Source: an uncultured Clostridia bacterium
GTDB taxonomy: Bacteria > Bacillota > Clostridia > Christensenellales > Borkfalkiaceae
NCBI GenBank assembly: GCA_947053655.1
Contig: CAMRTO010000006.1
Span: 867-64,866 of the forward strand
Length of the DNA: 64,000 nt
Direction of reading: 5' to 3'
The notes under the pieces are model-generated. The model was not told the origin of the DNA, did not search any database, and saw only the letters and a program-made list of their open reading frames with translations. The translations under genes were made by a program, and so were the position numbers. Below are positions 44,606 to 60,898 of the stretch, piece after piece (positions within the stretch are counted from its first letter, which is position 1; the number at the start of each line of letters is the position of its first letter).

Positions 44606-46957
44606 TTACGGTTGCACGCGCGTTAAGGGGAACGTCCTGCCGTATTGGTCCTCCAAAAGGAATCGGCCCGCCTCGTCGACAGTTAAATCTATGCCGAGAT
44701 TTTCACCCGATACATGCGTAAGGACGATTGACACGCCGTCCGTATCCACACTGAAATTCAAGGTCTGCGTTTTTGCCTGCTCGGGCAAAAGCGTGCCGTC
44801 CTCCTCGGTGGGCGTAACGGTTATTTTAACCGTACCACTTACCCCCTCTTCCGCGGACGAGGGCGTGAATACGAGATTGAAAATATTTCCCTCGCGTTCG
44901 TCGACCGTCGTGTATTCGCCGCTGAGCAACGATTCGAAATCGGGTAAATCGCTGACGGTAAACGTGAACAGGCATCTTATGGGCGAACCGGATAAAGAAG
45001 TTACCGTAACGTTGTACGTGCCTGCCGCCGTAGCTTTGAATTTAAAGCACTTCACACCGCCCAGCGTTACCTGCTCTATCGTCGCCGACGACGAGTTGGA
45101 GGATGTAATCTCCGCCTTCTGGTCGGCGTTTGCATATTCGTTTACCGCGCCGCGGAAATATATATCTCCGCCGATTGCGACCGTCTTTTTATCTGCGTTG
45201 CCGAACTTGCCCGTTACGGGGTTGCCTATCTGCGAAACAATCTGCTTGGGGTCTTCGCCCTTTACGTTAAACGTTATTGTTTTTTCTGTCAGCGCAGTCC
45301 TGATTTTAAGCTTCCATACGCCGCCGTTTCTAAGCCTAATATTTAAAACGTTACCGTTGCGGTAAGCCGTAAAGCCGGTTGAAACCAGTACGGTAGAGCT
45401 GTTGACTTCTCCGTTATGGTTGCCCTCATAGTCCAAATACATGGGGTCGTGCGTGAAGTCTGCGGTGGAGGGCATTATATCCTCTATATTTATGGTCAGC
45501 GAAGGATTTTTCACGTCGCACTCTATTTCGCCGTGATCGCCTAAATCGACGTTGTTGTGCATTAATTTATACGATTTCAGTTTGAGCATATCGGGCGAAT
45601 AGGGCATGTTTTCCGTTCTTTCACCGACGCTCTGGTCGACAACCGTAAAATTTCTCTGCGTGTACGGCGACGCGGGCGTCGTTATTCCGTTAACCGTAAC
45701 AAAGCTGGGCGTATACCAATCGGCTCCTGCCGCGCTGTCGTTGTTTTCGTAATAATCCTGCGTAAATTCCACGTGTTCTACGTTGTATTTTTCGCCGAGG
45801 GTAAATGTAACCGTTGTCTCGTAATAATCCGCATTGCTGGAGCGGAATTCCAACCCCGAGAAGGAGAAAGAATATCTTCTGTTCTGCTCGTCAACGGTTT
45901 CCTTCAAATCGCCGTTTGTGCAAGCCTTTGCATGCTTGTAGAGGTTTGTCAAAGTATTTTCTATACCGTACTGCGTATCGCTGCTGTACCAAAGGAAATT
46001 GGGCGAGCCTTCCATCGCTTCCGGAGTCAGTAACTGGTTTGCGACTGTTTTTCCGTCCTGAAGCTGCACGGCGAAGATACCGTCGCTGCCCATACTGTAA
46101 TGGGATTCGTAAATAACGTAACCGAGAACTTCTTTACCTTCTTCGTCCATAACCGGCGTGCTTGCATCCTCTTTGACGTAAGTGTAATTGTCGCCGAATT
46201 TATACTCGTAATCGAATATCTTGACGCCGTCTTTGATATCGGCGCCCTTCTTAGCCGACCAAACCGTCTGCGAGCCGGAAACAACCTCCGATTTGAACGC
46301 GCGTCCGACCGCAATGGCGCCCTGCACGGTGGATATATCCACGCCGGCAACCCTTACGCTATACGACGCCTGAACAGCCCCCTGCGAAACGGTTACGATG
46401 TAATCGCCCAGCGCAGAAAAGACCGTGTCGGAAACATTTCCCTTTGAGTCCCTAATTTCCAGCTTGAAATTTTTCAGATCTTCGGTAACGCGTTCGACAA
46501 GCTGTCCCTGCGCGTTCTCGTAAGTGCATTTAAGTTTCAAACCGCTGTAAGAAATTTCTTCGCCGAGGTTGTAGTCCTTTTTTACCGCCGCGGTATCCGG
46601 CTCTATCTTGCGCAGAATATTGTCAAAGCTGCCGACGTAAACGGTATATACAACCTTTTTGCCGCCGTAACCGACGGTTATCATGTAATCTCCCGCAACG
46701 CTCATATCGAAGCCCTTTTCCTGCGTGATTTTCGCCTCGTCGGTAACGTCGACGGTCTTACCGTCGCTGTAATGCGCCGTAACCGTAAAATCATCGCCCA
46801 GCACAAACTCGTCGCCGACCCTGAAATCCGTCCTTGCGTTTTCAACGGTAATGCTTTCCAGCTTGGAGCCGCCGCACGCGGAAAGCCCTGCGACGGTACA
46901 TACAGCCGCGGTAACGGCAAGCAGCACCGTCAGGAATATTCGTAAAGTTTTTTTCAT
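44606..46957 (-). CDS. surface lipoprotein with bacterial Ig-like (Big_3-type) domains
   Basis: 783 aa. Lipobox GLSACGG. Repeated module ITVENARTDFRVGDEFVLGDDFTVTAHYSDGKTVDVTDEAKI and similar. Confidence 0.7.
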   Translation of the reverse strand: MKKTLRIFLTVLLAVTAAVCTVAGLSACGGSKLESITVENARTDFRVGDEFVLGDDFTVTAHYSDGKTVDVTDEAKITQEKGFDMSVAGDYMITVGYGGKKVVYTVYVGSFDNILRKIEPDTAAVKKDYNLGEEISYSGLKLKCTYENAQGQLVERVTEDLKNFKLEIRDSKGNVSDTVFSALGDYIVTVSQGAVQASYSVRVAGVDISTVQGAIAVGRAFKSEVVSGSQTVWSAKKGADIKDGVKIFDYEYKFGDNYTYVKEDASTPVMDEEGKEVLGYVIYESHYSMGSDGIFAVQLQDGKTVANQLLTPEAMEGSPNFLWYSSDTQYGIENTLTNLYKHAKACTNGDLKETVDEQNRRYSFSFSGLEFRSSNADYYETTVTFTLGEKYNVEHVEFTQDYYENNDSAAGADWYTPSFVTVNGITTPASPYTQRNFTVVDQSVGERTENMPYSPDMLKLKSYKLMHNNVDLGDHGEIECDVKNPSLTINIEDIMPSTADFTHDPMYLDYEGNHNGEVNSSTVLVSTGFTAYRNGNVLNIRLRNGGVWKLKIRTALTEKTITFNVKGEDPKQIVSQIGNPVTGKFGNADKKTVAIGGDIYFRGAVNEYANADQKAEITSSNSSSATIEQVTLGGVKCFKFKATAAGTYNVTVTSLSGSPIRCLFTFTVSDLPDFESLLSGEYTTVDEREGNIFNLVFTPSSAEEGVSGTVKITVTPTEEDGTLLPEQAKTQTLNFSVDTDGVSIVLTHVSGENLGIDLTVDEAGRFLLEDQYGRTFPLTRVQP

Positions 46958-60898: not shown

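Follow-up and report, generated by a model that had tools for sequence, protein, structure and literature searches.

Operons that join a MoxR-type AAA+ ATPase of the MRP subfamily to DUF58 and VWA/BatA proteins occur in many lineages (for example Bacteroides, spirochaetes, rhizobia, mycobacteria, bifidobacteria and methylotrophs), and only the methanol-dehydrogenase accessory set among them has a defined job, the core being without an obvious client in most lineages. A cluster of this type lies in the 64,000-nucleotide stretch of DNA analysed here (contig CAMRTO010000006.1 of an uncultured Clostridia bacterium; 'the window' below), in which eight long open reading frames (ORFs), g1–g8, are tightly packed on the minus strand at 44606-60898. 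It raises the question of whether the proteins encoded beside such a core are its clients, its fellow subunits or simply its neighbours. Comparison of related loci showed that the conserved unit is g2–g8 (the cassette), and these seven genes very probably constitute one co-functional module. The genes, with lengths in amino acids (aa) and transmembrane segments abbreviated to TM, are:

g1, 56258-60898, minus strand: lipoprotein of 1546 aa with a lipobox and three Flg_new (Listeria-Bacteroides) repeats (PF09479, 2.7e-40)
g2, 55061-56146, minus strand: membrane protein of 361 aa belonging to no Pfam or NCBIfam family
g3, 53915-55042, minus strand: MoxR-type AAA+ ATPase, MRP-like (AAA_3, 1e-61; AAA_lid_2, 1.1e-17)
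g4, 53000-53884, minus strand: DUF58 protein, VWA-like, without TM segments (6.9e-27)
g5, 51114-53003, minus strand: three-TM protein of 629 aa with BatA_N and VWA_2 domains
g6, 48464-51136, minus strand: three-TM protein of 890 aa with two VWA domains
g7, 47010-48467, minus strand: lipoprotein of 485 aa with a lipobox, belonging to no Pfam or NCBIfam family
g8, 44606-46957, minus strand: Ig-like (Big_3) lipoprotein of 783 aa with a lipobox, the last gene of the cassette

Co-conservation of the cassette in related genomes

A profile of g5 homologues was used to search a collection of species-representative genomes and found relatives in 290 stretches, from which the best 80 loci were fetched. 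Loci were labelled by ORF calling, BLASTP and hidden Markov models (HMMs), the 79 genome loci with a complete g5 were counted, and the presence of each gene was scored over those loci whose contig covers its expected position. All carriers among these best 80 of 290 stretches are metagenome-assembled genomes (MAGs) of uncultured gut bacteria, labelled Christensenella, Christensenellaceae, Candidatus Borkfalkiaceae, Ca. Scatosoma, Ca. Coproplasma or simply Clostridia, and protein-cluster look-ups found no cultured-isolate name among the g5 relatives. The closest relative (L006) is the mouse-gut MAG MGBC111253, whose g5 is 97% identical to that of the window; member sequences of the source-species g5 protein cluster are recorded on more than 400 contigs each.

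The genes g2, g3, g4, g6 and g7 were present in every locus that covers their positions (75 of 75 for g2 and 74 of 74 for g7), 71 of the 79 loci hold all of g2–g7, and all but one keep the genes colinear (78 of 79), the order g2-g3-g4-g5-g6-g7(-g8) holding over 38–97% g5 identity. An orthologue of g8 was recognisable in 60 of 69 covered loci, and seven of the remaining nine have another ORF of 489–1354 aa directly after g7. Clustering of all flanking ORFs across the loci revealed no further conserved gene, and as nothing else in the flanks is common to the loci the unit g2–g8 is self-contained. Identity over all loci falls from the cytoplasmic proteins (MoxR 69–99%, DUF58 52–99%) through the VWA proteins (g5 38–97%, g6 32–98%) to the surface proteins and g2 (g2 24–94%, g7 24–97%, g8 22–91%).

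The original prediction, a note made from the sequence of the window, had proposed one operon of all eight genes and had staked itself on the core being conserved together with its flanking genes. This it survived, as g2–g7 are never missing where covered and a g8-like ORF nearly always follows, so that g2, g7 and g8 travel with the MoxR–DUF58–VWA core. The inclusion of the 1546-aa g1 did not survive: this gene adjoins the cassette in only 23 of 79 loci, is variable and is separated from g2 by a conserved hairpin, and the unit therefore has seven genes rather than eight. The same results bear on the simplest alternative, that the MoxR/VWA core and the lipoproteins are mere neighbours without a functional link. 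The hairpin after g1 speaks for this in so far as it shows that g1 may be a separate unit, but the retention of order and overlaps over 79 loci at 38–97% identity, between flanks that are not conserved, contradicts it for g2–g8 and leaves it possible for g1, and its overall probability is practically negligible.

Gene organization

ORF calling returned the eight reading frames at the positions and in the order that had been proposed, and the proposed overlaps follow from these coordinates: ATGA overlaps join g4 to g5 (53000-53003) and g6 to g7 (48464-48467), and g5 and g6 overlap by 23 nt (51114-51136), an overlap that recurs in the called genes of orthologous loci, as does the gene spacing of the cassette. 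The start of g4 lies 30 nt past the end of g3 and the VWA genes g5 and g6 then follow. The domain calls were borne out by Pfam for g1 (Flg_new), MoxR, DUF58, g5 (BatA/VWA), g6 (two VWA domains) and g8 (Big_3), but the BatA-N domain that had been assigned to g6 was below threshold (E 0.019, 15.8 bits against a cut-off of 25.9). Lipoboxes are present in the three proposed lipoproteins (g1, g7 and g8) and in nearly all their orthologues. For g2 the ATG at 56146 (361 aa), as in the orthologue P0241, is a likelier start than the TTG at 56182, which yields the 373 aa that had been given. Pairwise BLASTP gave no significant similarity for g5 and g6, g1 and g8 or g7 and g1, and these pairs thus give no evidence of recent duplication.

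MoxR, DUF58 and the VWA membrane proteins

The g3 protein scored 207 bits against PF07726 (cut-off 27) and 1.1e-17 against PF17863, and its Walker A (GVPGVGKT) and Walker B (LADEINR) motifs are invariant in 78 orthologues. Snider and Houry, as quoted in PMC12067865, recognize the MRP subfamily by a DUF58 gene that directly follows the moxR gene and by VWA genes in the vicinity, and g3 combines AAA_3 and AAA_lid_2 domains and intact Walker motifs with just such neighbours (g4, g5 and g6). In g4 the DxSxS motif and a downstream SD motif are invariant (about 80 species). No real TM segment was predicted in either MoxR or DUF58; the predicted topology has these two in the cytoplasm and the other proteins of the cassette outside.

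Topologies were predicted from hydropathy and the positive-inside rule. For g5 this gives an N-terminus outside, a TM segment, a 33-residue K/R-rich loop inside, a second TM segment, about 520 residues outside, a third TM segment and a 13-residue tail inside, in agreement with the Borrelia BatA-type protein BB0173, for which three TM segments and a periplasmic VWA domain have been mapped experimentally (PMC5700661); g6 is predicted to follow the same plan with about 785 residues outside. The g5 protein scored 41.1 bits against PF07584 (BatA_N; cut-off 25.9) and 1.5e-13 against VWA_2, and matched NF047506 (BatB) weakly. Its score against TIGR02226 ('two_anch') was just under the cut-off (21.7 against 23.05 bits), and its 629 aa and topology fit that class. 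Across about 80 species the residues of the metal ion-dependent adhesion site (MIDAS; DxSxS, T, D) show little or no variation in any of the three VWA domains, the one of g5 and the two of g6, so that three outward-facing MIDAS sites are predicted on these two membrane proteins. The g5 tail (DW[GMV]VYCYEQYQLR, residues 617-629, at 51117-51155) is almost invariant in 81 sequences down to 38% identity, and the loop (KSKYTEQT..STYLW.LSEKF, residues 25-45) is equally conserved; both are therefore more conserved than the ectodomain, and they are candidate docking sites for MoxR–DUF58.

An AlphaFold2 model of g5 (mean predicted local distance difference test score, pLDDT, 81.8) comprised the following parts, the limits of which were taken from the secondary-structure pattern of the model and not from GIFT alignment coordinates:

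residues 6-76: TM hairpin
residues 88-200: VWA domain
residues about 211-290: beta-sandwich
residues about 312-500: Rossmann-like domain (GIFT/GATase1-like)
residues 504-571: Ig-like sandwich
residues 602-628: C-terminal helix

The top structure match of this model was OST48/Wbp1 of the oligosaccharyltransferase (6s7t_G, 6c26_B; Foldseek E 9e-9, probability 1.0), and further matches included the GATase1-like STM3548 (2gk3, TMt 0.56), STM1381 and the N-terminal GIFT domain of IFT52 (5fmr), and the VWA domain is closest among PDB sequences to BatB (3ibs) and a B. fragilis aerotolerance-related protein (4jdu), both of which also match it in structure. The GIFT/GATase1 assignment is a fold-level match, as a Pfam search relaxed to E <= 5 gave no sequence match to this domain. 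In OST48/Wbp1, a docking scaffold in the lumen that has no catalytic role, a GIFT domain is followed by a beta-sandwich and then by a C-terminal TM helix (PMC7226087), and the g5 model shares with it this succession of GIFT/GATase1-like domain, beta-sandwich and single C-terminal TM helix and the location on the non-cytoplasmic side. The resemblance is one of fold and layout only, as there is no detectable sequence similarity, g5 adds the BatA_N hairpin and the VWA domain, and the cassette has no glycosyltransferase.

A further alternative is that the cassette is a biological-conflict or anti-phage system of the MoxR–vWA ternary type (Kaur et al. 2020) in which the lipoproteins would act as sensors or effectors. 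Pfam bpMoxR does match g3 (2.1e-14), and an RHS/YD toxin gene lies 0.7 kb downstream in the source genome. The AAA_3 score of g3 is, however, far above that of bpMoxR (207 against 53 bits), Pfam found no effector domain and no member of the propeller family that characterizes MoxR–vWA–beta-propeller systems, and PADLOC found no system, giving only weak generic AAA matches. Moreover, the gene order is kept in about 80 species with variable flanks, and only the loci of the source species (L006, at the 151-aa gene, and L124) have the RHS neighbour, all of which makes a conflict role most improbable.

The partner proteins g2, g7 and g8

The predicted topology of g2 has the N-terminus inside, two TM segments, a conserved 56-residue cytoplasmic loop, a further TM segment and a 208-residue acidic domain outside. 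Neither g2 nor g7 had a match in Pfam, NCBIfam or PDB-sequence searches, including profile searches and relaxed E-values, and as judged by these searches the two are unannotated families for which neither Pfam nor NCBIfam has a model. The g7 family extends to 763 clusters at 50% identity, again without a Pfam model, and an exhaustive g7 profile search returned, among the 150 matches listed, only same-length members of the family itself and hence no functional clue. A model of g7 (pLDDT 85.7) shows a disordered Pro-rich tether, a transthyretin-like sandwich, a jelly roll and, at the C-terminus, a small domain in which cysteines are conserved. Among known structures the jelly roll is similar to C-CPE and to the Ca-dependent collagen-binding domain (CBD) of ColG, further fold matches were to the beta-sandwiches of rhamnogalacturonan lyase and of glycoside hydrolase family GH115 and to Bacteroides DUF3823 and SGBP-B proteins, and no enzyme fold was found among the structure matches of the model. 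The g8 protein evolves fast, its orthologues ranging from 733 to 1233 aa, and its PDB-sequence search gave noise only.

In several distant species a shorter g7-like paralogue (about 311–324 aa) follows g8 (L060, L064, L073 and L076; HMM E 1e-27 to 1e-34), and weaker g7-like paralogues occupy the same place in L034, L043 and L046 (about 1e-5 to 1e-7), so that the g7 family has been duplicated within the cassette.

The modules of g7 bear on the alternative that the cassette is an apparatus for capturing a substrate or glycan. In it a polymer from host or diet would be bound at the cell surface by the outward GIFT-like domain, the g7 modules and the Ig-like lipoproteins, with MoxR–DUF58 serving for assembly only. 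A sugar-binding role has been proposed for GIFT domains (PMC7226087), the g7 matches include polysaccharide-enzyme beta-sandwiches, Bacteroides SGBP-B and CBD-like jelly rolls, and the host is a gut organism. Set against this, the fold matches are generic beta-sandwiches with low TM-scores, Pfam detected no carbohydrate-binding module family, and the clustering of flanking ORFs found no glycoside hydrolase, transporter or regulator conserved beside the cassette. We regard polymer capture as decidedly unlikely.

g1 and the hairpin between g1 and g2

The signals in and around the cluster that bear on its transcription are:

61087-61115, minus strand: promoter candidate upstream of g1 (TTGACG-17 nt-TG-TATAGT), the best minus-strand match to the sigma-70-like consensus
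56187-56225, minus strand: intercistronic hairpin (palindrome) between g1 and g2 (-29.9 kcal/mol, z -5.7)
44543-44586, minus strand: intrinsic terminator after g8, a 17-bp stem followed by UUUUUCUGU (-33.6 kcal/mol, z -8.8)

The original prediction had framed all eight genes between one promoter and one terminator. Its promoter at 61087-61115 is indeed the best match on the minus strand, but promoter-like sites in the region are not above chance (21 found against 18.1 +/- 4.1 expected from shuffling), so that naming this one was a choice and not a finding. Its terminator near 44547-44583 is strong, but the hairpin at 56187-56225 is a second terminator-like structure inside the cluster, and because this is both strong and conserved in 19 of 19 aligned loci a single eight-gene operon is not established.

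The hairpin is built as GCG-CAGGCUAUUCCGC-loop-GCGGAAUAGCC-GAA-CGC, then AAUUUUG. In all 19 aligned g1-containing loci (the window, L001, L007-L010, L013-L019, L021-L024, L026 and L027) it stands at the same position with the consensus GGCTATYCCG-loop-CGGRATAGCC, in which CTAT/ATAG is invariant, and its core is followed by a GC-rich outer stem and a short run of T. The window has a single copy of it, as does each carrying locus; it shows compensatory changes in 5 of 11 pairs and is much better conserved than the g1 protein that precedes it. Between it and the start of g2 lies the Shine–Dalgarno-like sequence ACGGA, so that g2 is probably translated on a transcript that includes the hairpin. 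A separate g2 promoter after the hairpin was considered and thought less likely: the only promoter-like sites found there overlap the start codon, for which reason read-through or attenuation is likelier. A metagenome scan for the motif gave 84 stretches, 80 of them retained as loci; only three of these 80 lie in this cassette and the others in unrelated, mostly higher-GC contigs, so that the bare palindrome is not diagnostic and only its position is informative. An Rfam search over 44000-61400 at E <= 1 gave no match except a sub-threshold one resembling the hepatitis delta virus (HDV) ribozyme. The hairpin may be an attenuator, a partial terminator or an RNA-processing or stability site that sets g1 apart from g2–g8, and the conservation of its sequence hints at a specific binding partner, such as a protein for which it would be the binding site.

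As to g1 itself, the 23 loci in which it adjoins the cassette are all those with at least 53% g5 identity and enough upstream contig, plus two that are more distant. Its orthologues are 791–1952 aa long and 26–38% identical, and it is duplicated in one lineage; g1 is an accessory, variable surface lipoprotein of the cluster. Directly after its lipobox, at residues ~30-80 (about 60660-60810), is a Cys/His-rich motif (H.H.Y.W....HW.EC.CGDK ... H.D....DGKCDVCG) that was matched by no Pfam model. The same motif is present at the N-termini of g1 orthologues and of some g8-like orthologues (L058, L067 and L081) and in an ORF of 457 aa in L034 (19861-21234), and is thus common to lipoproteins of these loci that are not otherwise related; it may bind zinc as a small module.

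Neighbouring genes

Upstream of the cluster, at 61252-62577 of the window, is an ordinary gene for a RarA/MgsA recombination ATPase (MgsA_C, 1.7e-67), which has a hairpin to itself near 61204-61216. Directly downstream, at 37453-44414 on the minus strand, is a region of lower GC content (0.41–0.43 against about 0.49) that encodes three proteins: one of 151 aa with two TM segments, an RHS/YD-repeat protein of 1899 aa whose C-terminal region is hydrophobic, and a lipoprotein of 255 aa. In the metagenomic contig L124 the last ~526 residues (C-terminal) of the RHS protein are 62% identical and the neighbouring genes 91–98%, and this variable C-terminal part fits a polymorphic toxin with a variable tip. 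In other species the RHS locus does not accompany the cassette. In L006 an additional lipoprotein gene (18501-20720, 739 aa) lies between g8 and the 151-aa gene; its product has several Listeria-Bacteroides-like repeats (GY.F..WSDG) and an HExxH motif (HEFIH). The window lacks this gene, so surface-lipoprotein genes appear to be gained and lost at the 3' end of the cassette. A gene for a GH28 polygalacturonase-like protein (34510-36126, 2.4e-35) is a second ordinary neighbour.

Comparison with known systems

No description of the cassette was found in the searchable literature, and a query combining Christensenellaceae and VWA likewise gave no relevant match. Among the systems closest to it is the Bat operon (of Bacteroides, and as Bat in Leptospira and BB0170-BB0176 in Borrelia), which like the cassette has MoxR, DUF58 and BatA_N proteins with outward VWA/MIDAS domains in 7–8 genes together with further envelope proteins. 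The two differ in several respects. None of the eight proteins matched TPR (BatC), BatD or SH3 (BatE) models in Pfam or NCBIfam, g2, g7 and g8 being found instead; the TM protein precedes MoxR rather than following DUF58; and the host belongs to the Clostridia. BatA and BatB have about 330 residues each, whereas the VWA proteins of the cassette have 629 and 890, with extra beta-sandwich, GIFT-like and Ig-like domains (in g5) and a C-terminal TM helix. The cassette thus has a Bat-type core (MoxR, DUF58, BatA_N-VWA) but is not a Bat operon proper. The aerotolerance and oxidative-stress phenotype of Bat is disputed for Leptospira (PMC3557215).

The view that MoxR–DUF58–VWA modules are mechanistically unexplained, which accompanied the original prediction, does not hold for mxaRSACKL, which has a defined role in Ca2+ insertion: MxaR (MoxR), MxaS (DUF58-type), MxaA, MxaC, MxaK and MxaL (MxaC and MxaL being VWA proteins) are all six required for the incorporation of Ca2+ into the periplasmic methanol dehydrogenase (PMC12276312). 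This set resembles the cassette in having a MoxR, a DUF58-type protein, two VWA proteins and further proteins (two small ones in mxaRSACKL) and in acting on an extracytoplasmic target, and is the strongest mechanistic precedent for a cytoplasmic MoxR with an extracytoplasmic client. Its client MxaFI is, however, a known enzyme, whereas the candidates in the cassette are non-enzymatic lipoproteins, the proteins are much larger and there are no genes for pyrroloquinoline quinone or methanol dehydrogenase.

RL3499-RL3502 of Rhizobium leguminosarum also has a MoxR–DUF58 pair followed by large BatA_N membrane proteins but comprises four genes and no lipoproteins. RL3501 and RL3502 are, we assume, BatA_N and GATase1-like membrane proteins, and the architecture of g5 (an N-terminal double-TM anchor, a GATase1/GIFT-like domain and a length within 600–1000 aa) would suit the TIGR02226 'two_anch' class, whose members begin outside and have two TM segments with a short loop in the cytoplasm. 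The reported phenotype of the Rhizobium operon concerns envelope integrity and cell morphology (PMC3893208). In Gram-positive lineages M. tuberculosis MoxR1 has been reported to assist export of the hydrolase RipA, which is encoded beside moxR1-DUF58-VWA (ripAB-moxR1-DUF58-VWA), and the Bifidobacterium PFNA cluster (pkb2-fn3-MoxR-DUF58-tgm) links MoxR–DUF58 to a surface FN3 protein, an adhesin (PMC12067865). In both, as in the cassette, MoxR–DUF58 is inherited with a secreted or surface protein, but the partners are a kinase, a transglutaminase and NlpC/P60 proteins, and the GIFT-like BatA_N/VWA pair and the g2, g7 and g8 families are lacking. Both are weaker parallels than mxaRSACKL.

Discussion

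We see about an even chance that g2–g8 are a lineage-specific elaboration, in Christensenellaceae/Borkfalkiaceae-like gut Clostridia, of the MRP-type MoxR–DUF58–VWA modules, in which g7 and g8 serve an ATP-dependent machine for assembly or maturation as its dedicated partners or clients outside the cytoplasm. The original prediction had proposed a MoxR/VWA-dependent system that assembles or anchors a cell-surface structure in a presumed Gram-positive (monoderm) envelope; in such a system the lipoproteins might be clients or subunits. A hexamer of MoxR together with DUF58 as a VWA-type adaptor would engage g5/g6 at their cytoplasmic loop and tail, and perhaps g2 at its loop, and MoxR would spend ATP to assemble or remodel the g5/g6 membrane platform; the MoxR/VWA principle assumed here comes from the work on NorQD. 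Outside, the OST48-like scaffold of g5 would act together with the three MIDAS sites to hold, metal-load (Ca2+/Mg2+) or otherwise mature the lipoproteins g7 and g8. The product would be a membrane-tethered surface-binding complex with a fast-evolving outermost layer of g8 and, where present, g1. The latter gene would probably be co-transcribed with the core but attenuated from it by the hairpin.

Several points weigh against this. Physical contacts within the module, a single transcript and any phenotype are predictions from the genes of uncultured MAGs; to our knowledge the action of a cytoplasmic ATPase on extracytoplasmic domains has been explained for no member of the class; and the contact of MoxR with loop and tail would follow from their conservation, the loop belonging to the generic BatA_N signature. 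The structure matches to beta-sandwiches are generic (TM-scores 0.1–0.55), no metal-binding site was identified in g7 or g8, and these two could be structural subunits rather than clients.

This last point is developed in the chief alternative, a client-free complex for envelope integrity or stress tolerance, comparable to RL3499-RL3502 in Rhizobium or Bat in Bacteroides, in which g2, g5, g6, g7 and g8 are all permanent structural subunits and the lipoproteins replace BatC, BatD and BatE, being neither matured nor displayed. The same co-conservation data would be expected from it, translational coupling suggests stoichiometric subunits, and the phenotypes known for MRP-type operons are of envelope integrity, cell morphology and stress tolerance (PMC3893208; PMC5700661). 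However, g8 is fast-evolving, variable in size and swapped for unrelated large ORFs in some species, and therefore fits an exposed, exchangeable partner better than a fixed subunit, and both g7 and g8 are built of modules of the binding type. We consider such a complex possible, though less probable than a machine with g7 and g8 as partners or clients.

A bolder form of the client reading would have the cytoplasmic AAA+ motor switch, through the invariant loop and tail, the ligand or metal state of the outward MIDAS sites (in an integrin-like 'inside-out' or a Ca2+-loading manner) and so load, lock or release g7, g8 and g1. This would be the first MRP-type system with clients that can be named, with g2 and g7 as dedicated families and the hairpin as a regulatory RNA site; taken whole, it is unlikely.

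For the wider family, the core of the cassette is locked to three unannotated partner families (g2, g7 and g8) in about 80 species-level genomes, which supplies named candidate clients, and at least two protein families absent from Pfam are defined here. The fold match of g5 suggests that OST48/Wbp1-like GIFT scaffolds may belong to bacterial MoxR envelope machines. Although common in the gut, the Clostridia that carry the cassette are uncultured, which limits immediate testing, but the cassette makes definite predictions, namely MIDAS-dependent binding or metal loading of g7 and g8 and ATPase-dependent assembly. Nothing is overturned by these results; rather, systems of a class that has awaited a function for 25 years gain targets for mutational tests.

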